A stretch of DNA of 64,000 bases from Deltaproteobacteria bacterium. GTDB taxonomy: Bacteria; UBA10199; SPLOWO2-01-44-7. Numbering within the stretch: position 1 is the first letter of the stretch; every line of letters begins with the position of its first letter. A program made the position numbers and the translations under genes. A model generated the notes under the pieces. It made no database searches. It was not told where the DNA came from and saw only the letters and a list, made by a program, of their open reading frames with translations. Below are positions 33,106 through 49,913 of the stretch, in pieces. The stretch is taken from assembly GCA_030648035.1 (NCBI GenBank), contig JAUSII010000122.1:24537-88536 (forward strand), read 5' to 3'.

Positions 33106-34923
33106 ATGAGAGTCCGCAAAAAGTTATTCACGAAGTTGCTCACGAAGTTGTTGGTGTCTTTGTCTCTGTCTCTGGCCACTCTGGTAACAGGTTGTGGCGG
33201 GAGTGATGGCGGAGGAGGGGTAGCAGGAACAACCACCGCCCTGGCCAACGTCGTTGTCCCCACTGTAAGTTCCACAAACCCTGCTGATGGTGATGTCGGT
33301 GTATTCATCAACAGAAAGGTGACTGCGGTATTCAGTGAGGATATGGACCCTGCAACCATCGACGACACAGTCTTTGTTTTAAACCAGGGAAGCGTGCCTG
33401 TTTCAGGTGTTGTAACCGCATCGGGTAACGCGGCCACCTTCACGCCCACAGGCAACTTGGGGATAAGCACCGTCTATACGGCAACGATCACGACCGGAGC
33501 CACCAGCTTGGCAGGTAATGGATTGGCCGCCAGTGAAGTATGGAGTTTTACGACAGGGACGACGGCAGATTCCACCGCCCCAACGGTGAGTTCCACAAAC
33601 CCGGTCAACGCGGCCACAGGTGTGGCCATCAACAGTACAGTCGCCGCATCCTTTAGCGAAGAGATGGATCCCCTGACGCTCACGACCTCCACTTTTCAAG
33701 TTTCAGGTCCTGACTCCGTTCTTGTCGCGGGGACGGTCAGCTATGCTTTGGTAGGCAACGTCGCAACCTTTACTCCCACAAGCAGTCTTGCAGTCAACAC
33801 CCTATTTACAGCAACAATCTCTACCGGTGCCAAAGACCTCGCGGGCAATGCGTTGGATTCCAGTAATGTATGGAGCTTTACAACAGGTGCAGTGGCGGAC
33901 AGTGTCGCCCCCACCGTCAGTTCCACCAACCCTGCTGATGCCGATGTGAGTGTGGCTCTTAACAAGACAATCTCCGCCACCTTCAGTGAGTCGATGAACG
34001 CCGCAACAATCACCACGGCAAACTACACATTGGCAGGGCCCGGCGCGGTTCCCGTCACAGGAACAGTCGACTATGTTTTGGCAACCAACATTGTAACCTT
34101 TACTCCCGCAAGCAATCTCGCACCGAGCACCTTATTTACAGCAACGATCAGCACCGGTGCCAAGGATCTCGCGGGGAATGCATTGGCTTCCAATAAAGTG
34201 TGGACCTTTACATCAGGGACAGAAGCGGCTCAGACTGTCGCTCAAACAGTAGTCCCCCTTGGATCGTCTTCCACCTTCGCGATTCTGGCTTCTGCGGCAA
34301 TCACCAGTATCCCGACTTCATCCGTTATCGGAGATATCGGTCTGACCCCGGATGCCGGATCCAATCTCACCGGGTTAACATGTTCAGAAATAACAGGCAC
34401 AGTCTACGTCACCAGTGCGGGTGGCAGTACTCTCGCCTGTCAGACCATCAGCGCGAGCATTCTCGATACCGCCAAAACCGATGCGGCCACTGCGTTCACC
34501 AATGCCAGGGACGCTGTTCGCGGAACACCTGCATCCATATCGGGCAATCTGAATGGTCTCACGCTGTATCCCGGGCTGTATGAATCGGGCACCTCGCTTG
34601 AGATATCCGCTGGCGGCATCCTTTATCTGGATGCTCAAGGCGATGCGGATGCCATCTTCGTCATCCGGAGTGAAACCTCCATCACCACACTGTCCACAAG
34701 CCAGATCGTCTTGACCAAAGGCGCAAAGGCCAACAACGTCTACTGGACAGCGGGAAGTGCGGTGACTCTGGGAGCCAACTCGATCATGAAGGGAACTTTC
34801 ATCGCGGGTACTGCGCTCACACTGCAGACCGGTGCAAACCTGGAAGGAAGAGCGTTGAACCAGGGTGCATCCGCCGCGGCGATTTCACTCGACGCCAGCA
34901 CTATTACCGTGCCTTCACCGTAG
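33106..34923 (+). CDS. secreted protein: 4 bacterial Ig-like (SbsA/Big_5-type) repeats + C-terminal DUF3494 ice-binding-like domain
   Basis: Lipobox/signal VTGCGG. Repeats APTVSSTNP...FTPxxNLAxxTLFTATIxTGAKDLAGNAL. C-terminal FAILASAAIT...GNLNGLTLYPGLYESG...NVYWTAGSAVTLGANS matches the DUF3494/IBP fold signature. Confidence 0.85.
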   Translation: MRVRKKLFTKLLTKLLVSLSLSLATLVTGCGGSDGGGGVAGTTTALANVVVPTVSSTNPADGDVGVFINRKVTAVFSEDMDPATIDDTVFVLNQGSVPVSGVVTASGNAATFTPTGNLGISTVYTATITTGATSLAGNGLAASEVWSFTTGTTADSTAPTVSSTNPVNAATGVAINSTVAASFSEEMDPLTLTTSTFQVSGPDSVLVAGTVSYALVGNVATFTPTSSLAVNTLFTATISTGAKDLAGNALDSSNVWSFTTGAVADSVAPTVSSTNPADADVSVALNKTISATFSESMNAATITTANYTLAGPGAVPVTGTVDYVLATNIVTFTPASNLAPSTLFTATISTGAKDLAGNALASNKVWTFTSGTEAAQTVAQTVVPLGSSSTFAILASAAITSIPTSSVIGDIGLTPDAGSNLTGLTCSEITGTVYVTSAGGSTLACQTISASILDTAKTDAATAFTNARDAVRGTPASISGNLNGLTLYPGLYESGTSLEISAGGILYLDAQGDADAIFVIRSETSITTLSTSQIVLTKGAKANNVYWTAGSAVTLGANSIMKGTFIAGTALTLQTGANLEGRALNQGASAAAISLDASTITVPSP

Positions 34924-34952
34924 GTACCCAGTGAACGCATAAGTTTTATGAA

Positions 34953-34989
34953 AACCCCCTGCACCGAAAGGTGCAGGGGGTTTTTATTT
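34953..34989 (+). terminator. rho-independent terminator (CCCCCTGCACC-GAAA-GGTGCAGGGGG + T-run)
   Basis: 11-bp GC-rich stem, GAAA loop, then TTTTTATTT. Confidence 0.85.
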
Positions 34990-35007
34990 GTGTCTTCGCG
35001 TCATCTT

Positions 35008-35044
35008 ACTCCCCCCCCTTTGAAAAAGGGGGGTTAGGGGGGGA
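35008..35044. repeat. G/C-tract palindrome (C8TTTGAAAAAG6-type), copy R1
   Basis: CCCCCCCCTTTGAAAAAGGGGGG; related to the copies at 35236, 35679 and 37472. Confidence 0.7.
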
Positions 35045-35053
35045 TTTAATCTC

Positions 35054-35305
35054 ATGCTCGAATACGATGCCAATTTGAAAAAATACTCACGACTACTTAG
35101 AAACAAAATGACAGATAGTGAGCGCAAGCTGTGGTCTCGGCTTCGCAAAAAACAGATTTTAACCGTGTTGCGTTTTGACAATTTAAAGGTGTTGCAAGAG
35201 ATGGATGGAGTCATGAGAACGGTTGGCGGGAGAAAATCCCCCCTGCCCCCCCTTTTTCAAAGGGGGGGAATAAAATGCACACACACTACCGGTCTCTTTT
35301 TATAA
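35054..35305 (+). pseudogene. truncated DUF559 (Vsr-like endonuclease domain) gene fragment
   Basis: N-terminus LLRNKMTDSERKLWSRLRKKQ matches the DUF559 N-terminus. The frame then runs into the G/C-tract palindrome (translated PLPPLFQRGG) with no catalytic half. Confidence 0.5.
35236..35290. repeat. G/C-tract palindrome CCCCCCCTTTTTCAAAGGGGGGG + AATGCACACAC tail, copy R2
   Basis: Shares the palindrome and the AATGCACAC(A/G)C tail with R3 and R4. Confidence 0.7.
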
Positions 35306-35567
35306 TCTGAATTTTGCATTCTTCTGCAATTTGAAGCAGACAATCCCAGATTGCTTTGTTGGGTCCTATTACAGTTAGTTGGTTGTCTTGTCTCCCGGCA
35401 ATCACTGGCACTACTTCATCTCCAAAGGAGGAGCCCAGCGAGGTAACTCCTCTAAAATCAAGCTCAACAGGATATTCCAGCGTCAGATTCAACTCTTCGA
35501 TTGTTTGTTTGCCAAACCCTCTTCCTGTAAGAATCGTTCCATATTTGCTCATATCCAATATGTTCAT
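35286..35567 (-). CDS. DUF4325/STAS-like small protein (putative partner-switching component)
   Basis: 93 aa with GRGFGKQTIEEL...LDFRGVTSLGSSFGDEV, resembling the DUF4325 STAS-like family that usually sits next to HATPase proteins. Confidence 0.45.
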   Translation of the reverse strand: MNILDMSKYGTILTGRGFGKQTIEELNLTLEYPVELDFRGVTSLGSSFGDEVVPVIAGRQDNQLTVIGPNKAIWDCLLQIAEECKIQIIKRDR

Positions 35568-35678
35568 AATTCTGAAATCCTCTTTTTACAAAACTTTACA
35601 ATATATTTTATAAGTTAATGTATTTCATGTGTTTTTAAGACTGAATGTCAGGATGACTCCGTAGGGCACATTTTTGAA

Positions 35679-35725
35679 TTCCCCCCCTTTTTCAAAGGGG
35701 GGAGTAAAAAGTAAAATGCACACTC
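35679..35725. repeat. G/C-tract palindrome copy R3, flanked by a 40-bp direct repeat (35627-35672 / 35738-35783)
   Basis: CCCCCCCTTTTTCAAAGGGGGGAGTAAAAAGTAAAATGCACAC; the flanking direct repeat is TTTTTAAGA..GTCAGGATGACTCCGT.GGG.A. Confidence 0.7.
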
Positions 35726-35740
35726 ATTACTCATGCCCGG

Positions 35741-37417
35741 TTAAGGAATGTTTTTAAGAATGCAAGTCAGGATGACTCCGTGGGGTATGTTGGGTTCCAC
35801 TTGAAAAGAGGCGCCTATGATGTGGGCACGGTTTTTCATGATCTTCAAGCCGATGCCTTTTGCATTTTGAGGATCCCCTACAAATCCTGTCCCTGCATCT
35901 TTGATGGTGAGGACAATGTTGCCGTTATTTCGAATGAAGCTGACATCGATCTCTTTGGCCTTCCCATGTTTGATCGCATTGACAATCCCCTCCTGCGCGA
36001 TTTTATAAATATGCGTGGCGACATCATTCTTGCTGATGAGAATGGGCTCGGGACAATAAAACCGGCACGAAACACCCGAAAGAGTCTGGTTGGCAGTCAA
36101 CTCTTCCAGCATATACATCAGGGAATTTCCTTCCAGCTCCCCCGGATAGAGGCCCCTCGCGGTATCCCGCGCCTGACTGGCGGCCCCATTGAGCAGGTCT
36201 GAAACTTTTTTCAAATCCGCCACGTCCAGATGTTTTCCCCTTTCCTTCTTTTGGGTGAGACTTTTCATCACCATCATGATCCCCGCCAGATCCTGGCAAA
36301 GACCGTCGTGAAGTTGTGCCCCAAAACATCTCTGCTCCGTATGGGTAATCTCCAATATTTCTTTGTTACTTTTAAGCAGTTCGGCGGTTCTTTCCTGAAC
36401 GCGCATTTCCATCTCTTCAAAAATAATCTGCAACCGCTCTTCCGCTTCTTTTCTCACAATAAATTGGCCCACCTGACCGCCAATGGTATCAAAGGTCTGC
36501 AACAACTCCTTATCAAAGCTTTTGCTCTCGATGCTGAAAAACTCCATGACCCCCAACATCTTTTTGCCCAGGCAAATCGGGAAAGCGACAGCACTCTTGA
36601 GACCCGCTTTCATCGCATGAGGAATACGTGAAAAATGGGGCGACTGGGCAAGATCGATGATCCAGCGCGGCTTTCCGCTCTCCCAGACTTCACATGGCAA
36701 TTCAACACCCTGCAAAAGTAGCGGCTTCTGATTGATTGCGAAAAACTCGGGGGCTTTTACCGAAGGGGAAAACCACGTCTGGTCGCAACGAATCTGGTGG
36801 GAGTCCGTATCCAGCATCCAGAAATTGCCGACGGCCCAACCCAGATTCTCTCCGATCGACTGGAGCACTTTTGGAAGGGCCTTTGCTGTGCCGGGAGCAA
36901 CGGCCAAAATCTGGCTGATCAGAAATTCGGTTTCGCGTTTGGCACTGGACTGACTCAATTGCTCCAACATGTTGGTGATTGTTTCGAGCTGATTTTCAAG
37001 CTCCCTTTTCTGCCGGTAAATCTCAATAAAAATATTCGCCTTGCTCCGGACCATGTGGGAGTCGAGCGGCTTGAGGAGAAAATCGACCGCGCCACTTTCA
37101 TAACCCTTGAACAAGAAGCCCTGGTCCTGGTCGGTCGCGGTGACAAAGATAATCGGAATGCTCCTGGTTTTTTTCGCCCCTCGCATGAGTTCAGCCAGTT
37201 CAAAGCCACTCATGCCGGGCATTTGCACATCAATGAGCGCCAGGGCAAATTCATCGCGCATCATAAACTCCAACGCCTCGGTTCCAGATTTGGCTTTGAA
37301 AATGGCGAGATCATCGCGCTTGAGCAATCCTTCCAGGGCAAGCAGATTGTCTTGCAGATCATCAACGAGGAGGATCTTGATCTGATTGGCATTTTTTTTC
37401 TTGTTTGGGTTCATCAT
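35741..37417 (-). CDS. hybrid REC-GAF-histidine kinase (HisKA_3/NarX-type HK)
   Basis: N-terminal receiver (ILLVDDLQDN...ALIDVQMPGMSG), GAF domain, an HisKA_3-type phospho-accepting His region, and HATPase (GIGLKIM). Confidence 0.85.
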   Translation of the reverse strand: MMNPNKKKNANQIKILLVDDLQDNLLALEGLLKRDDLAIFKAKSGTEALEFMMRDEFALALIDVQMPGMSGFELAELMRGAKKTRSIPIIFVTATDQDQGFLFKGYESGAVDFLLKPLDSHMVRSKANIFIEIYRQKRELENQLETITNMLEQLSQSSAKRETEFLISQILAVAPGTAKALPKVLQSIGENLGWAVGNFWMLDTDSHQIRCDQTWFSPSVKAPEFFAINQKPLLLQGVELPCEVWESGKPRWIIDLAQSPHFSRIPHAMKAGLKSAVAFPICLGKKMLGVMEFFSIESKSFDKELLQTFDTIGGQVGQFIVRKEAEERLQIIFEEMEMRVQERTAELLKSNKEILEITHTEQRCFGAQLHDGLCQDLAGIMMVMKSLTQKKERGKHLDVADLKKVSDLLNGAASQARDTARGLYPGELEGNSLMYMLEELTANQTLSGVSCRFYCPEPILISKNDVATHIYKIAQEGIVNAIKHGKAKEIDVSFIRNNGNIVLTIKDAGTGFVGDPQNAKGIGLKIMKNRAHIIGASFQVEPNIPHGVILTCILKNIP

Positions 37418-37471
37418 TATTATTTATGGATCATCGTGGAATCGAGTCGGTAAAAATGGTGGCCCTGTGAA

Positions 37472-37522
37472 ATCCCCCCTTACCCCCCTTTTTCAAAGGG
37501 GGGAGTGAAATGCACACGCATT
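37472..37522. repeat. G/C-tract palindrome copy R4
   Basis: CCCCCCTTTTTCAAAGGGGGGAGTGAAATGCACACGC. Confidence 0.7.
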
Positions 37523-37542
37523 CTTGCCCGCTTCTATTCAGC

Positions 37543-38403
37543 TCATTTCTTTTGAAAAATACGGTCCTTTTTTACAAAAGGATCAAAATATTTTGCATAT
37601 TGTGAAAACTGAATCGTCTCCTTGGCGCCCACACCCAAAAAACCTTTCCGGCAAAGCGACTCGTGAAAAAGTCCAAAGGCCCTGTCTTGCAGTTCGCGAT
37701 CAAAATAGATAAGCACATTCCGGCACGAGATCAACTGTGTTTCCATAAACACCGCATCGGTCACGAGACTATGATCTGCGAAGGTGATTTTTTTCTTCAA
37801 AATACTTTTGAATTTCGCCAGATTATCCGTTGCCGTGTAGTAGTCCGAAAGCGACCGCTTTCCACCCGACTTCTGGTAGTTCTCGGCGAAGCTCTGGATC
37901 ATTTTCAATTTAAAAACACCCTTTTCAGCTTTTTCAAGACTTCTGGGGTTGATATCAGTTGCATACAGGGTTGTGCGCGAAAGCAACCCCTCTTCCTGCA
38001 GCAGAATCGCAAGCGAATAGACCTCTTCTCCCGTACTGCATCCGGCGACCCAGACTTTGAGGGAAGGATAGGTTTTGAGCAATGGAAATACTTTTTGCCT
38101 CAACGCCAGAAAATAAGTGGGGTCGCGAAACATCTCGCTCACAGGAATCGTGAGAGATTCAATCAGATCATGGAAAAAATCAGAATCTTGGAGGATTTTT
38201 TTTTGAAGTATCGGGAGGGTGCCGCACCCCATCCGCTCCATCGCATGCACCATCGTTCGTTTCATCGAAGCGGGCGAATAATGCCGAAAATCGTAGTCGT
38301 ATTTAAGATTGATCGCCTCAAGCATGAGCTTCAGTTCGATCTCAAATTGCGGGTTCAGAATCCGTTCCATAAGCCTTAATTGCGCCCCAAGCTTGGCGTC
38401 CAA
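37543..38403 (-). CDS. CheR-type protein-glutamate O-methyltransferase
   Basis: CheR N-terminal helical domain plus SAM-binding core VWVAGCSTGEEVYSLAILL. The 3' end overlaps the start of the giant HK by 28 nt. Confidence 0.85.
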   Translation of the reverse strand: MDAKLGAQLRLMERILNPQFEIELKLMLEAINLKYDYDFRHYSPASMKRTMVHAMERMGCGTLPILQKKILQDSDFFHDLIESLTIPVSEMFRDPTYFLALRQKVFPLLKTYPSLKVWVAGCSTGEEVYSLAILLQEEGLLSRTTLYATDINPRSLEKAEKGVFKLKMIQSFAENYQKSGGKRSLSDYYTATDNLAKFKSILKKKITFADHSLVTDAVFMETQLISCRNVLIYFDRELQDRAFGLFHESLCRKGFLGVGAKETIQFSQYAKYFDPFVKKDRIFQKK

Positions 38404-41400
38404 ACCCGGATGACCGAGAAGAGCTGATGAAGATCGATGGGCTTGGAAAGATAATCATTCGCGCCGGCCTCCATGCAAAGCACCTGATCGTTCTTCGTGG
38501 CTTTGGCTGTCACAGCGATGATGGGAAGTTTTGAAAACCGTTTTTGTTTTCTGATCTCGCGCGTCGCCTGATAGCCATCCATCTCGGGCATCATGATATC
38601 CATGAGGACAAGATCTATGAGAGGATGATCTTTCAGTTTTGCGAGAGCCTCTTTTCCGTTTCTTGCAACCTCGATGTTGGCCCCTTTTTGCTCCAGAGCC
38701 GCGGTCAGCGCAAAGATGTTTCTGACATCGTCATCGACAACGAGAATCATTCTTCCTTTGAAGACATCTTCCCGACTCCGCAAGGTTTTCAGCAATTGCC
38801 GGTTTTCGGGTGAGAGTTTGGACTCCACGCGGTGAAGAAAAAGGCCGACTTCATCGAGCAGTCTCTCCGGAGACCTGGCTCCTTTGATAATGATCGAGCG
38901 GGAATATTTTCGAAGCGTGTCTTCTTCGTCCCGGGAGAGTGAGCGCCCGGTATAAATGATGACGGGGGGAAAGGAGGCCAGCTCTTTTTGTTCCGTCATT
39001 TTCTTCAATAGCTCTTCGCCCGACATATCCGGGAGTTTCAGATCAATCACCATGCAATCATAGACGGTTTTTTTGAGAGCATCGAGTGCCTCTTCCGCCA
39101 GGGCCACAGCCGTGATCTCGATATCGGGATTGGCAATGAGTTTGACCATGCTTTCTCTTTGAAGTTTGTTGTCCTCGACAATCAGAACGCGCTTTAACTT
39201 CTGGGAGAGATTGAATTCAATCTTGGCCAAAGCGGCCTTGAGTGCTTCGCGCTTGGCGGGTTTCAGCGTGTATCCGATGGCCCCCATCTGCATGGCCTTT
39301 TCTGTGTAATCATGCGCCGACGCAATATGGACCGGAATGTGCCGGGTCTTCGGATCTTCTTTGAGCTGGTCGAGCACCGTCAATCCCGAATGATCGGGAA
39401 GCATCATATCGAGCAGAATTGCATCTGGAATAAGACTTTGAGCAAACCCAAGCCCCTCTTCAGCATCTTGCGCGACCACGCACTTGTAGTTCAGCTCATG
39501 GGCCAGATCAAAAAGAATCTGGGCAGACTGCGATTCATCTTCGATCACCAACAACACGCGTCCGGGCTTTGCCCCGCGAGATTTGAGAGTGCCCCGATCA
39601 TCTGCAAAAGGCAGAGGCTGGATTCGCTCTACGCGTGGTTTGACCTGCACTGCGACGGGTAATGACGATGAATAGGCCTTTGGAGATGCCGACACAACGT
39701 GGGACTCGTCATAGGTCTCGGGCAGGAGAAGTGTGAAGCGGCTCCCTTCACCGGGCACACTCTCGACTGCAACAGTGCCACCGAGAAGTCTCGCAAGATC
39801 TCGTGTGATGGAAAGTCCAAGACCTGTGCCACCATATTTTCGATTGGTCGTCCCATCGGCTTGACGAAACGCCTCAAAAATCACTTCTTGTTGGGCTTTT
39901 GGAACCCCGATACCGGTGTCGATCACCGCGAGCGAGAGCTTCCCTTCCGCGCTCCGGGACACATGCAGTATGACCTGTCCTTTTTCCGTGAACTTGAATG
40001 CATTGGAAAGCAGATTCTTCAGAATTTGTTCCAGTCGTTGACGATCTGTGAGCATCGTCTCTGGCACACCCGGATCGATCTTGATTTGAAATTGGAGTTT
40101 CTTTTCGCGGGCCACGGGATCAAAAGTTTTTTCAAGAGTATTAAAAACACTGGGGAGAAACACGTTCTCGGGCCTGATCTCCAGTTTTCCGGCCTCCACT
40201 TTCGAGAGATCGAGAATATCGTTGATGAGATTCAGCAGGTCATTGCCTGCAGACGAGATGGAATGTGCATACTGGACTTGCTCCACGGTCAGGTTTCCAC
40301 CTGCATTGTCCGCGAGAAGCTTCGCCAGAATCAGCGAGCTGTTGAGCGGGGTCCGAAGCTCGTGGGACATATTCGCGAGAAATTCTGACTTATACTGGCT
40401 GGCTCTTTGCACTTCGTCGGACCTCTCTTCAAGCAGTGTCTGCGCTTTGTTGAGGGCCTCATTGTTTTCGTTTAAAATGTCGCGCTGTTGTTCAAGCTTT
40501 TCGTTGGTCTGCTCCAACTCCGATTGCTGATTTTTGAGTTTCGTCTGGGACTCCTGCAATGCGCGCGATTGGTCCTCAAGTTCATCATTGGTCGCTTTCA
40601 ACTCTGCTTGCTGGGTTTGCAGTTCTTCGGTCAAATCCTGCGATCTTTCGAGAAGCTCCTGCTGTTTCTTGCGGCTGATGGAGGTGTTGATCGCAATCCC
40701 GATATTCTCGGACACATGCTCCAGAAATGTTTTTTGATGTTCGGAAAAGGATGCAAAAGAAGCCAGCTCGATCACACCATTGACCTCTCCCTCATAAAAA
40801 ACAGGGGCCAGAAGCAGAGAACTCGGGGTGGAGTCGCCTAAGTCCGAACGGATTTTTCCAAAGTAACGCGAGGGCACTTTTTCGAGAAGGATGGGTCGCT
40901 TTTCCAACGCGGCCTGACCGACCAGCCCCTCTCCAATGGCAATCGTCTTCTCTTTGTCATCCAATTTGGAATAGGCATAACCGCTCACGCGCTTGAGCAT
41001 TTTTTCTTCGGTAACGTAGTAAAAAGCGCCCATCTGGGCATTCAAAAATGGCGCAAGATGACTCAAAACGCTTTGCCCCAGGCGTGAAACATCCTGCTCG
41101 CCGCGCATTTTGTCAGAGAGAGTGATCTGGCCTTCACGAAGAAATTCAAGTTCGCGTGCCTTTTCCCGGAGTGAGGCTTCGGCGTGCTTTCTTTCCGTGA
41201 TATCGCGCTCGGTGGTGGCAATGCCGGTCAGTTTTCCTTTGTCATCTGTGAGTTTGGTATTGATCAGCCAAACATCGATGATCCTGCCGTCTTTATGCTT
41301 TCGCTTGGTCTCAAGATTGGGCAATAATTCTCCGCGTTTCAGCGAGGCAAAAAATCCACGGGCTTCTTCCTGATATTCCGTCGGAACAGTATCAACGATA

Positions 41401-42347: not shown

Positions 42348-42393
42348 TTTTTATTCCTCGGAAAGTACGCGTGGGAATCTACTTTGTGGAAAT

Positions 42394-43068
42394 CTACTTT
42401 TCAGCGAGACACCATTTAACAGCATATTGGATGAGCTCATGAGAATTTTTCAGGTCCAGCTTGTTTTTAATATTGGCGTAATGCGATTCGATCGTCTTCA
42501 CACTCACAAAAAGTGACTCGGCAATGCGGTTGGTGGCATACCCCTGACCAATGAGTCTCAAGACCTCCAATTCGCGATCGCTTAACTTGCCCGTAGTGGC
42601 CCCGATCAGAGATTTGCCCCCTCCACTGAACTGGTGCATCAGGGTCTCTTTCATACGATCGCTCACATAAATATCACCACTGACCACTTTGCGAATAGCC
42701 GTTGTCACATAATCGGTGGCGGACTGTTTCATGAGATAACCTTTGGCCCCTGCCTTTAAAACACGTTCCACATGAAGAGACTCATCATACATTGAAAGAA
42801 TCAGGACGAGCGTTTTGGGATAATTGGCAACAAGATTTTTGGTGAGTTCGATACCGCTGGTTCCCTGCAGGGAGATATCCACGATCGCCACGTCGGGTTT
42901 GATCTTCGCAATGCTCTTCAGGGCTTCATCAGAAGTTCCGGCCTCTCCAACAGAGATCATATCGCTCTCCTGATTGATGAGCTGGGCCAGGCCCTGTCTG
43001 ACAATCGGATGATCATCAACGATAAAAACCTTCGTTTTTTCCACTTTATTTTTCAACGCGGTATTCAT
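42394..43068 (-). CDS. LuxR/NarL-family response regulator (REC + HTH)
   Basis: REC domain (VFIVDDHPIVRQGL...AIVDISL) plus LuxR-type HTH (LSDRELEVLRLIGQGYATNRIAESLFVSVKTIESH). Confidence 0.9.
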   Translation of the reverse strand: MNTALKNKVEKTKVFIVDDHPIVRQGLAQLINQESDMISVGEAGTSDEALKSIAKIKPDVAIVDISLQGTSGIELTKNLVANYPKTLVLILSMYDESLHVERVLKAGAKGYLMKQSATDYVTTAIRKVVSGDIYVSDRMKETLMHQFSGGGKSLIGATTGKLSDRELEVLRLIGQGYATNRIAESLFVSVKTIESHYANIKNKLDLKNSHELIQYAVKWCLAEK

Positions 43069-43218
43069 CTTCTTGTGTTATGCGCCTTTCATCGGAACAA
43101 TGACAAGTCTTCACTTCAGTCTACACCCTGATGGACTGACCTGTAACCCTTTTATTTTCTTATTTCCATGAGGGAAAACCGTATTTTCAAATGGGGGAAT
43201 CCCCCAGAGTTTGGGCAT

Positions 43219-43292
43219 TGTCATTGCGAGCGCAGCGAAGCAATCCCGTTGATCATCGGGATTGCCACGGCCCCTTCGGGGCCTCGCAATGA
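43219..43292. repeat. GTCATTGCGAG nested-palindrome element, copy 4 (with adjacent half-motif GGAATCCCCCAG at 43193-43215)
   Basis: Full element with terminal inverted repeats. Its 3' flank CTTTGTCAACAAACTCTTAAG + P2 is duplicated at 46770-46858. Confidence 0.8.
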
Positions 43293-43313
43293 CACTTTGT
43301 CAACAAACTCTTA

Positions 43314-43360
43314 AGAAAATCCCCCAGTCAAAAATCGTGGTTCCCCCGATTGTAACCCCT
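43314..43360 (+). promoter_or_regulatory. regulon motif copy P2 (AAAATCCCCCAGTCAAAAATCGTGGTTCCCCCGATTGTAACCCC)
   Basis: About 90 bp upstream of 43451. Confidence 0.7.
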
Positions 43361-43450
43361 CGCCAAAGGCACGTGTGGTGAGGGCTTGACTAAAACACAA
43401 GAAATGGAATACGAACTTTTAAATATTGGGCGGAAGAGAAGAAGGGGAAA

Positions 43451-46400
43451 ATGAGTATGACCGACGGAATATGTTTTAGACCGAATCAAAGCCATTCTGA
43501 AGCAGAAGATGCCAATATGTCCTGTGCGTCTTTTGAATCTTTCAGCTCATCGACCGTTCAGACAGAAGGGGCAGATTCTGGAGGACGAGAACGTTTTTTA
43601 GCGGGCAGAGATTATCTAAGAGATTTGGAAGGGCGTTCTGTTCTGCCAGATGGCTACAAGGGCAAATCCAATGGTATTCCTTTAGGGATATTCGCTGTTG
43701 CCGGCGTTACTGGAACAACAGTGGGACTTATTGCAACGCCTGCAGTTGGACTTGCCGTGGGAGGAGCTATTTTATTGTCCGGATGTTCGGATACAGACAA
43801 CCCAAAGGGAAAAACAGATTCTTCGGCAGAACCGGTATGTAATAAAAATTCTGATTGCAATCCCCCTGTCACAGTTTGTAAAGAGGGAACCTGCCAACCT
43901 CCTAAACCCTGCAATGATGATGAAGATTGCGAGGGAGAAAATGTAAATACTCAATGCGATGATGCTTTGGGAGTATGCAGAGAAAATACCACTTCAATTG
44001 AAATTTGTGACGGCTTAGATAACAACGAGGATGGTAAAATTGATATCGATCCTCAGACAGGTGAAAAAATTTCGAAACCCTGCGGTGGCCGGAGTGTTGG
44101 AATATGCCGTCCAGGGGCACAACACTGCGACGCCGAAAAGAACTCTGCTCAAGAACATTGGAGCGATTGTACAGGAGTTGTTCCGAAAAAGAATGAGCAG
44201 TGTAATGGATTAGATGATGACTGTGATGGCTTAACGGATGAAGACCTGCCCGAATGCGGCCTTCATGTTCCCGTTTTAAATCCGATTGGTGACAAAATTA
44301 TTGATGAGGGACAGCGGTTGAGGTTTGTTTTGTCAGCAGTGGATGCGGATGATAATCCGTTAACCTATTTTGCATCTCACCTTCCGGAGGGAGCTAGATT
44401 TGATCCGGTCGACCGCGTTTTTGATTGGACCCCCAGTTTTGAACAGGCGGATGTCTATTCAGACATTCACTTTGGAGTGAGTGATGGGATAACTACGACT
44501 GGTGAAGATATTACGATCACCGTTCAAAATGTGAATCGTCGGTGTGTCATGTCTCCAATTCCAGATCAGACGGTGGATGAAAATGAATCTTTGGTTGTGA
44601 CCGTAAATGCATCCGACCCGGATGTGGATGACACGTTGATTTTTAGCGGAGATAACTTACCAGCAGGTGCGACAGTAAACTCGAGCACCGGAAAATTAAA
44701 CTGGAGACCCACCCTTACGCAAGCCGGAGCATACCGAGACATCGGGATCACGGCGACAGATGGGGATATGAGCTGTAACCAGCATTTTGATGTTGCGGTT
44801 ATCAATGCCAACCGACCGCCGGTAATGGACGCCATCTCCAATCAGACCATCAATGAAAATCAATTACTCACCGTTACCCCACGGGCCTCCGATCCAGATG
44901 GTCAAACCTTAAATTTCAGTGGCAATAATTTGCCTCGTGGTGCGGTAGTCAATCCAACTACAGGAGTGTTGACTTGGACACCCGGCTTCGATCAGGCCGG
45001 CTCATATCCAAACGTGGGGATCACCGCGAGTGATGGGAGTTTAAGCGTTACACAAAGATTTAGTATAACCGTTAATAATGGAAACAGGCCGCCAGTAATG
45101 GAAGCCATCCCCAATCGGACTATCAATGAGAATCAATTACTTACCATCACCCCACGGGCCTCTGATCCAGACGGTCAAACTTTAAATTTCAGTGGCAATA
45201 ATTTACCCCGCGGTGCGGCAGTTAATTCAACTACAGGGGTGTTGACTTGGACCCCCGGCTTCGATCAAGCGGGCACATACCCAAACGTGGGGATCACCGC
45301 GAGTGATGAAAATTTAAGCGTCACACAAAGATTTAGTATCACCGTTAATAACGTAAACAGTCCTCCAATTTTAAATTCAATCGGCAATAGAACTGTCAAT
45401 GAAGGAGGATTGTTGACGTTTACCGTTTTTGCATCCGATCCAGATGGAGATGCGCTGACCTATTCCGCCTCCAATCTGCCGACGGGATCGAGTTTTAATG
45501 TTTCAACGAGAGTTTTCAGTTGGACACCAAATTGCAGGCAAGCGGGTGCATATCCGGTAAGTTTTTCTGTGACAGATCGTGGGACACCCAATTTATCAGA
45601 TAGTGAAAATGTTATGGTCACAGTTAACGAAGCCTGTTCCAATGTTGCGTGGACTAGAACATATAATGGATCGTTTAATGGTAGGGATATCGGCCATGGC
45701 ATCGCCGTGGATAATAATGGGAATGTGTATGTGACGGGTTCTGAGGAGGCTACTGAACTAAATTATAATATTTGGGTCAGGAAGTATGATGCCAATGGCA
45801 ACACTTTATGGACAAGGACCTATAATGGCTCTGCTAATAGTACTGATGAAGGCCGAGGCATCGCCGTAGATAATAATGGAAATGTGTATGTGACTGGGTC
45901 TGAAATTGTTGCCGGGCAACGTAGTAATGTTTGGGTTAGAAAATATGATACCAATGGCAATGCTTTATGGACCGAAACCTATAATAATCCTGCTAACAGT
46001 TCGGATGAAGGTCACGGCATCGCTGTAGATAATAATGGGAATGTGTATGTAGCGGGAGATGAGAATGTTGCTGTACAATATGCTAATATCTGGGTCAGAA
46101 AATATGATGCCAATGGCAATGCCTTATGGACCAAGACCTATAATAATCCTGCTAATGGTCCTGATATGGGCCAAGGCATTGCCGTAGACAATGTTGGAAA
46201 TGTGTATGTGACGGGTTTTGAGGATGCTGATGAGGAATCTTTTAATATCTGGATCAGGAAGTATGATGCCAATGGCAATACTTTATGGACAAGGACCCAT
46301 AATGCCAATTGGGGAGATTTCGGCAACGGTATTGCCGTAGACGGAAATGGAAATGTGTATGTGACGGGTTCTGAGACTGTTGTTGCGGGAAATGATAATA

Positions 46401-46714
46401 TATGGATCAGGAAATATGATACCAATGGCAATACTTTATGGACGGAAACCCATAATGGATCTGCTAATAATCTGGATAGTGGCAATGGCATTACCATAGA
46501 TAGAAATGGAAATGTGTATGTGACGGGTTTTGAAGCTGTTGCTGGAGGAGGTGGAAATGTCTGGGTCAGAAAATATGATACCGATGGTAACACTCTATGG
46601 ACGGAGACCCATAATGGTGGTGTCGGCCAAGGTATCGCCGTAGATATTAATGGGAATGTGTATGTGACGGGGCAGGAGAACGGAGATATCTGGGTCAGAA
46701 AGTATGTGCCGTAG
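43451..46714 (+). CDS. giant surface protein: Cys-rich MopE-like N-region, >=5 cadherin-like/He_PIG Ig repeats, C-terminal 8-bladed SBBP beta-propeller
   Basis: TM/lipobox around LLSGCSD. ~92-aa repeats PPVMxAIxNxTINENQLL...FSITVNN include two near-identical tandem copies. Eight NIWVRKYDxNGNxLWTxTYNG...GIAVDNNGNVYVTG units match the SBBP repeat. Confidence 0.8.
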   Translation: MSMTDGICFRPNQSHSEAEDANMSCASFESFSSSTVQTEGADSGGRERFLAGRDYLRDLEGRSVLPDGYKGKSNGIPLGIFAVAGVTGTTVGLIATPAVGLAVGGAILLSGCSDTDNPKGKTDSSAEPVCNKNSDCNPPVTVCKEGTCQPPKPCNDDEDCEGENVNTQCDDALGVCRENTTSIEICDGLDNNEDGKIDIDPQTGEKISKPCGGRSVGICRPGAQHCDAEKNSAQEHWSDCTGVVPKKNEQCNGLDDDCDGLTDEDLPECGLHVPVLNPIGDKIIDEGQRLRFVLSAVDADDNPLTYFASHLPEGARFDPVDRVFDWTPSFEQADVYSDIHFGVSDGITTTGEDITITVQNVNRRCVMSPIPDQTVDENESLVVTVNASDPDVDDTLIFSGDNLPAGATVNSSTGKLNWRPTLTQAGAYRDIGITATDGDMSCNQHFDVAVINANRPPVMDAISNQTINENQLLTVTPRASDPDGQTLNFSGNNLPRGAVVNPTTGVLTWTPGFDQAGSYPNVGITASDGSLSVTQRFSITVNNGNRPPVMEAIPNRTINENQLLTITPRASDPDGQTLNFSGNNLPRGAAVNSTTGVLTWTPGFDQAGTYPNVGITASDENLSVTQRFSITVNNVNSPPILNSIGNRTVNEGGLLTFTVFASDPDGDALTYSASNLPTGSSFNVSTRVFSWTPNCRQAGAYPVSFSVTDRGTPNLSDSENVMVTVNEACSNVAWTRTYNGSFNGRDIGHGIAVDNNGNVYVTGSEEATELNYNIWVRKYDANGNTLWTRTYNGSANSTDEGRGIAVDNNGNVYVTGSEIVAGQRSNVWVRKYDTNGNALWTETYNNPANSSDEGHGIAVDNNGNVYVAGDENVAVQYANIWVRKYDANGNALWTKTYNNPANGPDMGQGIAVDNVGNVYVTGFEDADEESFNIWIRKYDANGNTLWTRTHNANWGDFGNGIAVDGNGNVYVTGSETVVAGNDNIWIRKYDTNGNTLWTETHNGSANNLDSGNGITIDRNGNVYVTGFEAVAGGGGNVWVRKYDTDGNTLWTETHNGGVGQGIAVDINGNVYVTGQENGDIWVRKYVP

Positions 46715-46724
46715 AAAAAACCAT

Positions 46725-46782
46725 CCCGGGATTGCCCCCTTCGACAAGCTCAGGGTGAGCGGTGTTGAAGGGCCTCGCAATG
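46725..46782. repeat. GTCATTGCGAG element, partial copy 5 (right half only)
   Basis: CCCGGGATTGC...GGGCCTCGCAATGAC with the left terminus absent; followed by the same spacer + P3 as at copy 4. Confidence 0.7.
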
Positions 46783-46805
46783 ACACTTTGTCAACAAATC
46801 GCTTA

Positions 46806-46850
46806 GGAAAATCCCCCAGTCAAAAATCGTGGTTCCCCCGATTGTGCCAG
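46806..46850 (+). promoter_or_regulatory. regulon motif copy P3
   Basis: AAAATCCCCCAGTCAAAAATCGTGGTTCCCCCGATTGTGCC, 27 bp upstream of the 46877 ATG. Confidence 0.7.
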
Positions 46851-46876
46851 CCCTCCATACTTTGTAAGTTTGTTGC

Positions 46877-47383
46877 ATGATGAAACTAAAAAAAATGATT
46901 GGACTTGGATTGGCCTCGTTGATCTGCATCACCAGTTTATCTGCGCTGGCCAGAGGCAAAGGTTACACTTCCTACGGACCTGAAGAGATGCGTTTCGGCG
47001 CCGGACTTTATCTGGGCGAGCCGACCGGGTTCACCTTTAAAGGATATGTGACCGAAAAACTGGCCATTGATGGTATCGCCGGATGGGGTTTGAACCATAA
47101 GGTCTTTACCATGATTGGAGATGTCACCTACGATTTTCTCGATATTCCGATCGACTCCACTGTTGTGAAACTTCCCTTATACGCCGGTATTGGCACGAAG
47201 CTGGAATTCAAGGTCGGGCCCAACGACGACACCACGGTGGGCCTTCGGGCACCTATCGGTATCGCTGTGCAATGGCTCCACCATCCCTTCGAGGTCTTTG
47301 CCGAAATTGCCCCGGGAATGAAAGTCTCCCCCTCCGCAGGTTTTGACATTATGGGCGGCGTCGGCGTGCGATTCTACTTCTAA
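46877..47383 (+). CDS. small 8-strand-type outer-membrane beta-barrel protein (OmpW/OmpX-like), C-terminal F
   Basis: Signal peptide, alternating aromatic beta-strands, terminal ...GVGVRFYF. Confidence 0.8.
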   Translation: MMKLKKMIGLGLASLICITSLSALARGKGYTSYGPEEMRFGAGLYLGEPTGFTFKGYVTEKLAIDGIAGWGLNHKVFTMIGDVTYDFLDIPIDSTVVKLPLYAGIGTKLEFKVGPNDDTTVGLRAPIGIAVQWLHHPFEVFAEIAPGMKVSPSAGFDIMGGVGVRFYF

Positions 47384-47430
47384 GGTAATCCCCCAGTCAA
47401 AAATCCGGCATCCCCCGATTGTCATCCCAT
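47381..47430 (+). promoter_or_regulatory. regulon motif copy P4
   Basis: TAAGGTAATCCCCCAGTCAAAAATCCGGCATCCCCCGATTGTCATCCC; starts at the stop codon of the OMP gene. Confidence 0.7.
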
Positions 47431-47521
47431 TTCACCTCTTATATATTTCATCCACGATATATCGTGAAGTTATTTTGGGAAGTTAAACAGGAGTCGATCT
47501 ACCAACAAAGGAGAAGCCATT

Positions 47522-47809
47522 ATGTCCAACAACGACGGTACCATGAATCAGCACGCTTCAGATTTTCGCAAGAAGGCATCCACTCTGGGTCGTGATGTTG
47601 AAGACCTCGGTTCCATCACCAAAGAGTTGGCTGGTGCTGCAGTTGACAAGTTGCAGGAGAATGCGGGCGAGTATTATGATCAGGGAATGAAAAAGGCCAA
47701 GCTTTTTGAAAGAGGTCTTGAGAAAAAGATCAGCTCAAATCCGCTGATGTCTCTTCTGATCGCCGCAGGTGTCGGCCTGGTCGCAGGGGCCCTTTTTAAT
47801 CGCCGATAA
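47522..47809 (+). CDS. ElaB/YqjD/DUF883-family stress-induced membrane-anchored protein
   Basis: Helical N-region plus a C-terminal anchor NPLMSLLIAAGVGLVAGALFNRR, typical of DUF883. Confidence 0.7.
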   Translation: MSNNDGTMNQHASDFRKKASTLGRDVEDLGSITKELAGAAVDKLQENAGEYYDQGMKKAKLFERGLEKKISSNPLMSLLIAAGVGLVAGALFNRR

Positions 47810-47810
47810 A

Positions 47811-48233
47811 ATGCGCCAACTTTTATCAAATATGAGTCTGGGAATCCTGGCCGTCGCTGTGGCGGCCGGGATTCTTTTGATTTCTGTTTTCTTTCTGATG
47901 TATGGGGCCGCAACTGGCCTGGGAACAGTCTTTGTGGACAAGCCCTGGTTGGGTTGGGTCATCACAGGCGGGGTCTTTCTTTCAGGCCCGATTCTGTTTT
48001 TCACAATTCATTTTTCAAAACCAAAAAAGAAGCCGGCAGATTTTTCAAAAACAAGCGAGGCCCTTCTGCAACAAATTCTGGATGCCACAAGAAAGCATCC
48101 TTTGCAATCCACCGGTGCCGCGGCGGCCGCAGGCTTCATGGTTGGTGGAAAAGAGCCCTCCGAGATCACGCATGCCTTGAAAGAAGCCCTGATCCCGATT
48201 CTGGTGGAATACATCCAATCCAGACAAAAATAA
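47811..48233 (+). CDS. YqjE-like small inner-membrane protein (2 TM)
   Basis: Starts 1 nt after the ElaB-like stop; two hydrophobic helices. Order mirrors E. coli yqjD-yqjE. Confidence 0.45.
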   Translation: MRQLLSNMSLGILAVAVAAGILLISVFFLMYGAATGLGTVFVDKPWLGWVITGGVFLSGPILFFTIHFSKPKKKPADFSKTSEALLQQILDATRKHPLQSTGAAAAAGFMVGGKEPSEITHALKEALIPILVEYIQSRQK

Positions 48234-48235
48234 GG

Positions 48236-48285
48236 CTAAGGAAATCCCCCAGTCAAAAACCGTGTCTCCCCCGATTGTTCATCCC
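48236..48285 (+). promoter_or_regulatory. regulon motif copy P5
   Basis: GGAAATCCCCCAGTCAAAAACCGTGTCTCCCCCGATTGTTCATCCC, near-identical to P1. Confidence 0.7.
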
Positions 48286-48350
48286 TGCCTTCTTCTGTAG
48301 CCTCCGCGTCAGTCAGAAGTAAACAAACCAGGATTCACAAGGAGGAAAGT

Positions 48351-49913
48351 ATGATGAGAAATTATAAGATGTTGTTCACGGCTTTATTTCTGGCCGCTTT
48401 CATAGCTGGATGCGGAGGTGGTAACGGGGAAGAGGTGGCAGAAACACCCGCCGCCACTACTACTACCACCACGACCACCAGCACGACGACAGACGCCACC
48501 GATACAACGGCGGGCATCACCGGCACGGCGACAGGCACCACCAGTGCAGCGGTCGACACCACTGCACCCACGGTGAGTTCCACAGACCCCGTCAATGCGG
48601 CCACAGATGTGGCGATTGACAAAAAAATCTCTGCAACCTTCGACGAAGAGATGGATTCCCTGACAGTCACAACCACAAATTTTCTGGTCACAGGACCCGG
48701 AACAACTTCCGTCTCCGGAACTCTCGCTTTGGTGGGCAACATCGCAACCTTTACTCCTGGAAGCAATCTCGCGGCCAACACCTTATTTACGGTAACGGTC
48801 ACCACCGGTGCCAAGGATATTGCAGGCAATGCATTGGCCAGTGATAACGTATCGACCTTTACCACCGGTGCAACGGCAGACTTGACCGCCCCCACCGTGA
48901 GTTCCACCAATCCTGCCAACGCTGATGGGAGCGTGGCCATTAACAAAAAAGTCACCGCCACCTTTAGTGAGTCGATGGATTCTGCAACAATCATCACGGC
49001 AAACTATACAGTGACGGGACCTGGAGCAACCCCCGTCGCAGGAACTCTGGCGTTGGTTGGCAACGTTGCAACATTTACCTCTGACAGCAATTTCGCACCC
49101 AGCACACTGTTTACAGCAACGATCACCACCGGGGCCAAAGACGCCGCTGGCAATGCGTTGGCCTCCGATAAAGTGTGGACCTTTACAACAGGAACAGAGG
49201 CGGCTCAAAGCGTCGCTCAAGCAACAGTGCCCCTTGGATCATCCTCAAATTTTGCAATTCTGGCTTCTGCCGCAATCACCAACGTCGCGACTTCCGTGAT
49301 TAATGGAGATGTCGGTTTGACTCCGGATGCCGGATCCAACATCAGCGGGTTCAGCGCTCCAGACACATGCCCGGAAGTGACAGGCAAGATATACGCCGTG
49401 GATGCAACAGGTCCTGCGTGCATTATACCTGCGCAACAAAATCCGACGCTTCTTTCGGATGCCAAAACCGATGCTGGAATTGCATTCACCAATGCCAGAA
49501 ACGCTGTTCGCGGAACGCCTGCATCCATCTCGGGCAATCTGAATGGGCTGACACTGTATCCCGGCTTATATGAATCCGGAACTTCGCTTGAAATATCTGC
49601 AGGTGGCTTTCTTTATCTGGATGCTCAAGGCGATGCGAATGCCGTCTTCGTTATTCGGAGTGAAACCTCTATCACCACGCTGTCCACCAGTGAAGTTGTT
49701 TTGACCAAGGGCGCAAAAGCGGCCAACGTCTACTGGATAGCGGGGAGTTCGGTAACTCTTGGAGCGAACTCGATCATGAAGGGAACCTTTGTAGCAGGAA
49801 CATCCATTGCGCTACAGACCGGTGCAAACCTGGAAGGAAGAGCATTGAATCAGGGTGCGTCGGCTGAAGCGGTTACACTGGATTCCAGCACCATCACCGT
49901 GCCTTCTCTGTAA
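48351..49913 (+). CDS. secreted paralog: Thr-rich linker + 2-3 Ig-like repeats + DUF3494 ice-binding-like domain
   Basis: Lipobox FIAGCGG and poly-Thr linker. Its Ig repeats and C-terminal DUF3494 region are closely similar to 33106-34923 and almost co-linear over the last 250 aa. Confidence 0.85.
   Translation: MMRNYKMLFTALFLAAFIAGCGGGNGEEVAETPAATTTTTTTTSTTTDATDTTAGITGTATGTTSAAVDTTAPTVSSTDPVNAATDVAIDKKISATFDEEMDSLTVTTTNFLVTGPGTTSVSGTLALVGNIATFTPGSNLAANTLFTVTVTTGAKDIAGNALASDNVSTFTTGATADLTAPTVSSTNPANADGSVAINKKVTATFSESMDSATIITANYTVTGPGATPVAGTLALVGNVATFTSDSNFAPSTLFTATITTGAKDAAGNALASDKVWTFTTGTEAAQSVAQATVPLGSSSNFAILASAAITNVATSVINGDVGLTPDAGSNISGFSAPDTCPEVTGKIYAVDATGPACIIPAQQNPTLLSDAKTDAGIAFTNARNAVRGTPASISGNLNGLTLYPGLYESGTSLEISAGGFLYLDAQGDANAVFVIRSETSITTLSTSEVVLTKGAKAANVYWIAGSSVTLGANSIMKGTFVAGTSIALQTGANLEGRALNQGASAEAVTLDSSTITVPSL

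Follow-up and report, generated by a model that had tools for sequence, protein, structure and literature searches.

Two DUF3494 lipoprotein genes of a deltaproteobacterium share a 46-nucleotide upstream motif with putative envelope and general-stress genes

Introduction

DUF3494 is the most widespread ice-binding fold, and most of its thousands of bacterial members come from ice-free habitats. To our knowledge, almost nothing is known about the regulation of bacterial DUF3494 genes, and most members are without a known role. Here, we analyze a 64,000-nucleotide (nt) stretch of a Deltaproteobacteria bacterium genome (GTDB lineage UBA10199; assembly GCA_030648035.1, contig JAUSII010000122.1, positions 24,537 to 88,536), hereafter the window, in whose own numbering all positions are given. 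It codes for two paralogous lipoproteins that combine immunoglobulin (Ig)-like domains with a C-terminal DUF3494 domain, and each of these ice-binding-protein (IBP)-like genes lies behind a copy of the same 46-nt motif. A previous sequence-only reading of the window proposed that this pair serves a cold or freezing response, or surface adhesion, under one regulator.

The closest described design is that of SfIBP_1 from Shewanella frigidimarina (PDB 6bg8; Vance, Graham & Davies 2018, FEBS J), in which tandem bacterial Ig-like domains likewise form the spacer between an N-terminal lipoprotein signal and a DUF3494 domain at the C-terminus. This DUF3494 domain is homologous to those described here (phmmer E=2.9e-22; Foldseek template-modelling score [TM] 0.87). 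The stalks differ: there are two or three Big_5 (SbsA-type) domains here, whereas the 6bg8 entry gives "Ig domain, group 2". The solenoid here is nearer to FfIBP and EfcIBP (36% versus 30% identity) and has an FfIBP-type capping head with a cysteine pair; the SfIBP_1 cap reportedly relies on prolines and electrostatic contacts. Furthermore, SfIBP_1 has an Antarctic host and its ice activity has been measured, whereas the proteins described here are known from sequence alone. The idea that the lipoprotein-Ig-DUF3494 design makes an ice adhesin has been cited before (PMC9957290).

FfIBP from Flavobacterium frigoris PS1 (4nu2) and EfcIBP (6eio) share with our proteins the IBP-1 fold, aligned capping-head cysteines and a T-[A/G/S]-x-T/N type ladder on the equivalent face. 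Those two are free, secreted, single-domain proteins of polar organisms with measured thermal hysteresis, whereas the present proteins appear to be lipid-anchored and carry Ig-like stalks. Their ladder is also less regular, with Glu in one or two rungs, and they score below the cut-off of the NCBIfam equivalog built on the FfIBP/EfcIBP group.

A third comparison is with fibrillar-adhesin-like proteins. Monzon et al. 2021 (PMC8286594) place Ice_binding (PF11999) on their "adhesive" list and Big_5 (PF13205) on their "stalk" list. Both of our proteins fall within that definition, which asks for one or more domains from each list, and carry the adhesive domain at the end away from the anchor; their stalk of two or three domains is short, and the class is one of domain grammar alone.

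On the regulatory side, the relevant systems are general-stress regulons, such as the RpoS-dependent elaB, yqjD-yqjE, yjbJ (CsbD), ytjA (DUF1328) and osmY (BON) of E. coli and the EcfG regulons of Alphaproteobacteria. Members of these small stress-protein families are also found behind the motif, both in the window and on related contigs. However, regulons of the RpoS/SigB/EcfG type are driven by alternative sigma factors, while the linked regulator here is of the NarL/FixJ type with a CheR/multi-kinase cassette. We know of no general-stress regulon that includes DUF3494 lipoproteins. As in described NarL/FixJ and HisKA_3 systems, our regulator joins a receiver domain (REC) to a GerE helix-turn-helix (HTH), and a HisKA_3 kinase is encoded in its gene string. 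C-rich, heptamer-like units, inverted and direct, occur in the motif, and we take them to be reminiscent of NarL heptamers. Nevertheless, the element is not the NarL 7-2-7 arrangement, and binding by the regulator here is a prediction.

The two lipoproteins

The two genes and their flanking elements are arranged as follows.

32989-33056 (+): promoter region of gene 1, with the 46-nt motif at 32989-33034 (position weight matrix [PWM] 71.3 bits), a putative -35 TTGTTC at 33028-33033, a 17-nt spacer and a putative -10 TAAGCT at 33051-33056
33106-34923 (+): IBP-like lipoprotein 1, 605 amino acids (aa), GenBank MDO8528052.1, named "Ig-like domain-containing protein"; signal peptide and lipobox Cys30 at 33106-33195, three Big_5 domains at 33253-34212, DUF3494 beta-solenoid at 34282-34908
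34948-34987 (+): intrinsic terminator of gene 1, an 18-pair hairpin with GAAA loop, then a T-run
48236-48303 (+): promoter region of gene 2, with the motif at 48236-48281 (PWM 70.5 bits), a putative -35 TTGTTC at 48275-48280 and a putative -10 TAGCCT at 48298-48303
48351-49913 (+): IBP-like lipoprotein 2, 520 aa, GenBank MDO8528062.1, named "ice-binding family protein" by the Prokaryotic Genome Annotation Pipeline (PGAP); lipobox Cys21 at 48411-48413, disordered Thr-rich linker at 48414-48554, two Big_5 domains at 48555-49190, DUF3494 at 49257-49898
49936-49973 (+): intrinsic terminator of gene 2, a 17-pair hairpin with GAAA loop and T-run; the next motif copy is directly 3'

Both proteins have the architecture of lipobox, Ig-like repeats and C-terminal DUF3494 domain that the sequence-only reading had given them. 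Pfam finds three Big_5 stretches in the 605-aa protein (E=1.3e-71) and two in the 520-aa protein (E=1.9e-44). PF11999 is matched at aa 393-601 of the former (E=4.3e-42, 144.6 bits) and aa 303-516 of the latter (E=6.1e-49, 166.9 bits), both scores being far over the cut-off of 28.7 bits and both matches covering the model end to end (1-208/208). The lipoboxes, read from the translations, are LVTG/C (Cys30) in protein 1 and FIAG/C (Cys21) in protein 2. In each, a basic/hydrophobic signal precedes the lipobox, and a Gly- or Thr-rich stretch, disordered in the structure model, follows it. A lipobox is also found in 62 of 93 full-length homologues. The proteins had been called secreted; as lipoproteins, both are probably tethered to the cell and not released.

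The two proteins are paralogues with 72% identity across 457 aa (about 75-78% in the DUF3494 domain), and the conserved peptide blocks by which they had been paired are present. They are the only DUF3494 genes of the window, since tblastn finds no further one there. Third-codon-position identity is only 0.45-0.68, against an amino-acid identity of 0.80-0.93 in the solenoid. The paralogues are old.

The solenoid belongs to the FfIBP subgroup. We modelled the 520-aa protein with AlphaFold2, using 101 homologues as input, and placed the 605-aa paralogue by its domain identity to it. The mean predicted local distance difference test (pLDDT) score is 87.7, with values >90 over the Ig-like and solenoid domains, and the model has a helix at residues 365-383 along with solenoid strands, in keeping with the IBP-1 fold, in which a long alpha-helix braces a discontinuous beta-solenoid. 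The predicted beta-solenoid is thus present: the top Foldseek match is FfIBP 4nu2 (TM 0.94, root-mean-square deviation 1.4 A, 36% identity), and SfIBP_1 6bg8 reaches TM 0.87. By sequence, the nearest solved relatives are EfcIBP (E=4e-32) and then FfIBP. Two cysteines align with those of the FfIBP capping head, which has been described previously (PMC10853241). All of the 31 best PDB matches are DUF3494 ice-binding proteins. We considered an enzymatic role for the solenoid and dropped it, as the structural neighbours are all ice-binding proteins and Pfam and NCBIfam give no catalytic family.

A shared motif before both genes

The conserved block upstream of both IBP-like genes is CTAGGGnAATCCCCCAGTCAAAAA-N7-TCCCCCGATTGTTC. 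The strict motif, AATCCCCCAGTCAAAAA-N7-TCCCCCGATTGT, has six copies in the window at up to three mismatches, where shuffled sequences give none; two degenerate copies accompany them. A PWM of the core finds nine sites in the window, eight on the + strand and a ninth on the - strand before a NarL-type regulator gene. The same core PWM finds no motif in 492 kb of control DNA, made up of unrelated loci that code for homologous proteins.

Outside the window, the motif is present in 15 related contigs, and 37 unique instances were collected from 12 contigs. It lies upstream of the nearest IBP homologues in three independent assemblies (L001-L003). A scan of Joint Genome Institute (JGI) metagenomes with the motif alone returned eight stretches on seven contigs. 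In every one of these contigs >4 kb long, the motif precedes a Big_5 lipoprotein gene, and the genes found behind it include DUF883, DUF1328, PAP2, hydrolase, sensor-kinase and regulator genes as well. One contig (L009) repeats the gene order of window positions 47380-49913: motif, DUF883, PF07332 protein, motif, Big_5 lipoprotein. The palindromic half of the motif appears usable in both directions, as one palindrome is common to two overlapping divergent copies at L088:9899(+)/9915(-).

The strict pattern has no match in 185,579 species-representative genomes. Either the lineage lies outside the representative set or motif variants elude the strict pattern. A later protein scan found no relative above 54% identity, and LigA homologues are at most 70% identical and all from metagenome-assembled genomes (MAGs) labelled "Deltaproteobacteria bacterium".

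The DUF3494 lipoproteins behind the motif fall into three subfamilies, with a mutual solenoid identity of only 35-45%. Because three subfamilies this divergent all lie behind the motif, it appears to be the protein type, and not one particular gene, that belongs to the putative regulon in this lineage.

The motif appears to be a real regulatory element and not a chance repeat. The alternative is a dispersed repeat of the repetitive extragenic palindromic (REP) or miniature inverted-repeat transposable element (MITE) type without regulatory role, which would make the co-regulation illusory. Many near-identical intergenic copies and one palindromic half, with a weak hairpin flagged on the opposite strand, are what such a repeat would offer. 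However, all eight high-scoring window copies and the regulator variant point to the gene immediately downstream. In seven of the nine copies, the core ends 32-100 nt 5' of the start codon, and the two copies placed further upstream are the regulator variant (~94 nt) and the copy at 60679 (~310 nt). The block is also kept before orthologous genes in different organisms whose flanks have diverged, and neither terminal repeats nor target duplications were seen. Finally, the left half of the palindrome changes without compensation in the right half, which argues that no RNA hairpin is under preservation. We therefore regard a dispersed repeat as highly improbable.

The uncompensated change also led us to reject an RNA-hairpin reading of the motif. 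Among known RNA families, Rfam matches only three tRNAs in the window.

Promoters and terminators

Within the 46-nt motif of gene 1 are the palindrome TAGGGTAATCCCCCA and two copies of TCCCCC at a distance of 22 bp. The promoters of the two genes had been described as near-identical, and their motif copies are indeed identical across 39 consecutive nt, including the spacer, which is variable in other copies. A TAnnCT element (TAAGCT, TAGCCT) follows 19 nt 3' of GATTGT in both. This suggests a register of -35 TTGTTC, 17 nt and TAnnCT as -10, with 5' leaders of ~40 nt. In the same register, the DUF883 promoter reads TTGTCA-17-TATATT and is detected by a sigma-70 consensus scan (10/12 match). That scan does not call the two IBP promoters, because their -35 is weak, matching at only 3/6 positions, as expected for activator-dependent promoters.

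The terminators are alike as well. The hairpins sit 22-25 nt past the stop codons, and two copies of the same hairpin, as had been reported, stand against 0 expected. They match at 33/35 positions, and both differences keep the pairing as G-U wobbles. Since the paralogues are old, the near-identity of these non-coding elements reflects selection or gene conversion, not recent duplication.

A stem of nearly the same bases, CCCCCTGCACC/GGTGCAGGGGG, stands behind DUF3494 genes on four contigs (window 34951-34986 and 49938-49973; L001:3199; L008:2391(-); L088:18674). The genes concerned include those of subfamily B, with only 34-44% protein identity. Loops differ between the copies, and two pairs have compensatory changes; the covariation signal over the five sequences is weak, being reached by 65 of 500 shuffles. 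Across ~190 kb of related DNA, this hairpin follows no other gene. It could be an added post-transcriptional control point for DUF3494 genes from different subfamilies.

Envelope and general-stress genes behind the motif

Six further units of the window lie behind the motif.

18772-19051 (+): CsbD unit; degenerate motif at 18772-18817, CsbD-like gene at 18887-19051
43311-46714 (+): surface-protein unit; motif at 43311-43356, 1087-aa He_PIG / Big_9 / SBBP beta-propeller protein at 43451-46714
46803-47383 (+): 168-aa unit; motif at 46803-46848, secreted protein ending ...RFYF
47380-48233 (+): DUF883 unit; motif at 47380-47425, DUF883/ElaB-YqjD-like tail-anchored protein at 47522-47809, PF07332 (YqjE-like) membrane protein at 47769-48233
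49979-54650 (+): OmpA string; motif at 49979-50024, then a 350-aa protein, a 734-aa thrombospondin-type-3 repeat/beta-helix protein and a 436-aa OmpA-family protein
60679-62148 (+): second OmpA unit; degenerate motif at 60679-60724, a 149-aa protein and a 219-aa OmpA-family protein

CsbD and ElaB stress genes had been placed next to the IBP-like genes. This does not hold for CsbD, whose gene (18887-19051) lies 14 kb from gene 1, though behind a degenerate motif. The "ElaB" gene matches only the C-terminal DUF883 model, at 24.4 bits and thus below the cut-off of 27; its match and that of the PF07332 protein are both slightly under cut-off. The 168-aa secreted protein has no Pfam match and looks like a small outer-membrane barrel. 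Its putative -10 TAAGTT (46865-46870) ends only 6 nt 5' of the ATG at 46877, so the transcript would have no leader, unless the start codon has been placed wrongly.

Similar genes follow the motif elsewhere. In L091 (GCA_016699445.1, CP064976.1; a 2.75-Mb closed genome), a motif-led gene string at 14221-18299 (-) codes for a 66-aa protein, a BON-domain protein, a 178-aa protein, an Fe superoxide dismutase (SOD)-like protein, an OmpA-family protein and a ferritin/rubrerythrin-like protein. At L002:219-5358, an OmpA-family gene stands between the genes of two DUF3494 lipoproteins from separate subfamilies, with a single motif copy ahead; this OmpA-like protein is 33% identical to the one at 53340-54650 of the window, which hints at a recurring DUF3494 / OmpA-like partnership.

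In total, the families of general-stress and envelope type found behind the motif are CsbD, DUF883 with the PF07332 protein, DUF1328, BON, Fe-SOD, ferritin-like and OmpA-like. The CsbD, DUF883 with YqjE-like, DUF1328, BON, SOD, ferritin-like and OmpA-like families are part of general stress responses elsewhere. We consider it fairly probable, together with the surface-adhesin account given below, that the element marks out a regulon, specific to this lineage, of genes for the envelope and for general stress.

A candidate regulator and its sensor cassette

The regulator gene and its surroundings are arranged as follows.

42394-43068 (-): NarL/FixJ-type response regulator, REC and GerE HTH (Pfam)
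43162-43207 (-): variant motif before the regulator gene, 29.9 bits
35741-42347 (-): sensor cassette in the regulator's gene string, in which the regulator comes first; hybrid PAS/GAF histidine kinase with three receiver domains at 38376-42347, CheR methyltransferase at 37543-38403, REC-GAF-HisKA_3 kinase at 35741-37417
32543-32992 (+): receiver-only truncated paralogue of the regulator, 149 aa, no HTH, directly upstream of gene 1

This regulator is the only DNA-binding response regulator near the IBP-like genes. Its best NCBIfam matches are all of the NarL/FixJ type, and none reaches equivalog level (best 143 bits versus a cut-off of 300). Orthologues with 64-72% identity occur on five of seven related contigs >2.5 kb, and in L088 and L089 the same cassette order follows the orthologue. 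Beyond the cassette, L088 has motif-driven GGDEF and Big_5+DUF3494 genes.

The association also holds when contigs are sampled by the regulator, independently of the motif. Four contigs were fetched via regulator orthologues (86, 79, 69 and 67% identity), and all four carry the motif. It precedes a Big_5+DUF3494 gene in one and a BON-SOD-OmpA-ferritin-like string in another. The regulator of L091 is 67% identical to that of the window. Thus, control under one regulator, as the sequence-only reading proposed, fits a motif that stands before orthologous and non-orthologous DUF3494 genes on independent contigs and co-occurs with one NarL-type regulator. We propose this regulator as the best candidate for the factor controlling the motif genes.

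The regulator is probably autoregulated, because a motif variant precedes its gene in the window, L007, L088 and L089. In this variant the palindrome is kept and the second half is changed. Upstream of the window regulator there is a nearly perfect GGGGGAATCCCCC, 104 nt from the + strand copy at 43311.

The block could instead be the promoter of a dedicated alternative sigma factor, of a general-stress kind like the extracytoplasmic function (ECF) sigma factors, with the NarL-type regulator merely a member of the regulon. The very high information content over ~45 nt would suit this, and it takes in a possible -35 CAGTCA, 17 nt and -10 GATTGT; the regulator gene is itself behind a motif variant. 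The CsbD, DUF883, DUF1328 and BON content also resembles, from background knowledge, sigma-driven general-stress regulons elsewhere. On the other hand, no sigma-factor domain occurs in the Pfam-scanned open reading frames (ORFs) of the window or among the genes called on L088-L091, the analysis covering only fragments of the genomes. An imperfect palindrome with direct repeats spaced by 22 bp suits a dimeric HTH protein. Moreover, TAnnCT is conserved at a fixed distance of 19 nt downstream, the DUF883 promoter has its sigma-70 match in that register, and the regulator-gene variant keeps the palindrome while altering the second half. We thus consider a dedicated sigma factor unlikely.

The receiver-only paralogue shares 64% identity with the regulator over aa 10-142, and full-length orthologues elsewhere match it at 72-74%. 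Its TAG stop codon falls within the first bases of the gene 1 motif, and a sensitive tblastn search around gene 1 finds no remnant of the missing HTH. The protein could be a phosphate sink or a rearrangement remnant.

Is the fold used for ice binding?

The strongest competing account takes both proteins for genuine ice-binding proteins that act as ice adhesins like SfIBP_1, and the regulon with them for a dedicated cold or freeze response. For ice binding speak the experimentally studied ice-binding proteins that make up all 31 top structural matches, with FfIBP at their head, as well as the capping-head cysteine pair aligned with that of FfIBP. The combination of lipobox, Ig-like stalk and DUF3494 is also the design of the proposed ice adhesin SfIBP_1, and PGAP names one protein an ice-binding family protein.

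The Thr/Ser face can be read in two ways. A T-[S/A]-x-T ladder, derived from the FfIBP alignment and the strand register of the model, is kept in both paralogues in four to five of six coils, on the face equivalent to the FfIBP ice-binding face. In protein 2 the six coils read A-A-I-T / T-S-L-E / T-S-I-T / S-S-V-T / T-S-I-A / E-A-V-T; protein 1 is slightly more regular. The positions of this ladder are Thr/Ser in 75-97% of 101 Big_5+DUF3494 homologues from many habitats, and for this reason the ladder appears to be a family-wide trait that does not single out ice binders.

The protein type is also common and previously annotated; both proteins are already in GenBank, on a 99.5-kb MAG contig. 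The same architecture occurs in >6,400 database proteins, and the DUF3494 domain forms 10,973 clusters at 50% identity in a library of 1.84 billion proteins. Homologues span >20 phyla, with MAGs from groundwater, fen, palsa, lake and soil, and their sources include the isolates Hanamia caeni and Flavisolibacter ginsengisoli. The NCBIfam equivalog NF045625 (IBP_CFB) gives 119.9 and 125.9 bits, against a cut-off of 400. Thus, because the ladder is family-wide, homologues come from many habitats and the NF045625 cut-off is missed widely, ice binding by the two proteins is possible but unsupported.

The regulon does not help the cold response either. The companion genes are of the general-stress and envelope kinds, not cold-shock genes. 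DEAD-box helicases are a gene class that is cold-inducible in some bacteria, and the one in the window (26651-28066) has no motif upstream. Nothing points to a specific cold or freezing response, and that part of the sequence-only reading is unsupported. We regard true ice adhesins in a dedicated cold regulon as rather unlikely. The other proposal of the sequence-only reading, surface adhesion, fits the design of lipobox, stalk and terminal domain.

Other features of the window

Several features lie outside the units described above.

995-1082, 1728-1800 and 15667-15738: three tRNA genes (Rfam)
11093-12358 (+): FHA-domain sigma-54 activator
25440-26435 (-): Fic-MerR fusion protein

Just past the gene 1 terminator, positions 34990-35570 hold a poly-C/poly-G hairpin, CCCCCCCCTTTGAAAAAGGGGGG, at about 35013-35035, a truncated DUF559 endonuclease-like ORF (35054-35305) and a DUF4325 STAS-like ORF (35286-35567, -). 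Lying between the IBP unit and the kinase cassette, this segment resembles the remains of another element. Positions 16000-22000 have a G+C content of 0.41-0.43, versus about 0.50 elsewhere, and contain an M48 peptidase, an ORF6N (antirepressor-like) gene, the motif-driven CsbD gene and a 614-aa leucine-rich repeat (LRR) protein with a MopE-type metal-binding motif. They may be an acquired island. In L091, an ORF6N gene also lies near the regulator.

The large secreted proteins at 28162-31572 (+) and 19707-21551 (-) have MopE-type putative Cu-binding motifs, the first also a Laminin_G_3 domain. In a survey of Arctic MAGs, the MopE-type motif pfam11617 was the most frequent non-IBP domain upstream of ice-binding-protein genes (PMC9957290).

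Discussion

We consider it reasonably probable that the two proteins are stress-induced surface binding or protective modules, adhesin-like in build, within a stress and envelope regulon. After export, lipidation at the lipobox cysteine would yield outer-surface lipoproteins built like fibrillar adhesins. The disordered Gly/Thr-rich linker and the rigid stalk of three or two Big_5 domains would hold the DUF3494 solenoid off the membrane, and its flat T-[S/A]-x-T face would bind an ordered, hydroxyl-rich surface, which may be ice if the habitat freezes, but not necessarily.

Each IBP-like gene would be a monocistronic unit with an activator-dependent sigma-70-type promoter (weak -35 TTGTTC, -10 TAnnCT), a conserved upstream element at about -73 to -36 and a strong intrinsic terminator closing the unit. 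The NarL-type regulator (42394-43068) would bind the element, and the adjacent cassette of hybrid kinase, CheR and HisKA_3 kinase would feed the regulator. Architecture, fold and paralogy are shown by the data, as are the motif's conservation, its specificity, the genes behind it and its co-occurrence with the regulator, whereas surface exposure, the promoter register, the identity of the regulator, the ligand and the inducing signal are all points that we infer.

Several observations weigh against this account. Surface exposure of lipoproteins in this lineage is an assumption. The Thr/Ser ladder reflects a sequence register, not inspected coordinates, and it would agree equally well with true ice binding. 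Two contigs, L001 and L002 (9-11 kb, fragments), have the motif and no regulator orthologue. Finally, the alternative register with -35 CAGTCA and -10 GATTGT is conceivable, and the whole block could then be the target of an alternative sigma factor.

More tentatively, and as a possibility rather than an expectation, the data may describe a general-stress and envelope-remodelling response that is run by a NarL-type regulator, not an alternative sigma factor, with a CheR-modulated multi-kinase cassette and an element of ~46 nt, and whose most consistent effectors include surface-tethered DUF3494 lipoproteins from three or more subfamilies. We found neither a defined regulon for bacterial DUF3494 genes nor a NarL-type system heading a general-stress-like regulon in the searchable literature. 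What is new here is thus the link between DUF3494 genes and a stress-type regulon, which we infer from the comparative genomics of uncultured organisms. The 46-nt element, the candidate regulator and two expressible domains provide testable reagents.

A cold-response reading of such genes should not spread on the Pfam name alone. The regulon context instead gives a concrete hypothesis: DUF3494 lipoproteins may be stress-induced surface binding modules. If this is true, the "ice-binding" fold would be tied to a general stress programme, be it desiccation, osmotic or freezing stress or stationary phase. A further implication would be that the widespread non-polar role of the fold is stress-induced protection of the cell surface or attachment by it.

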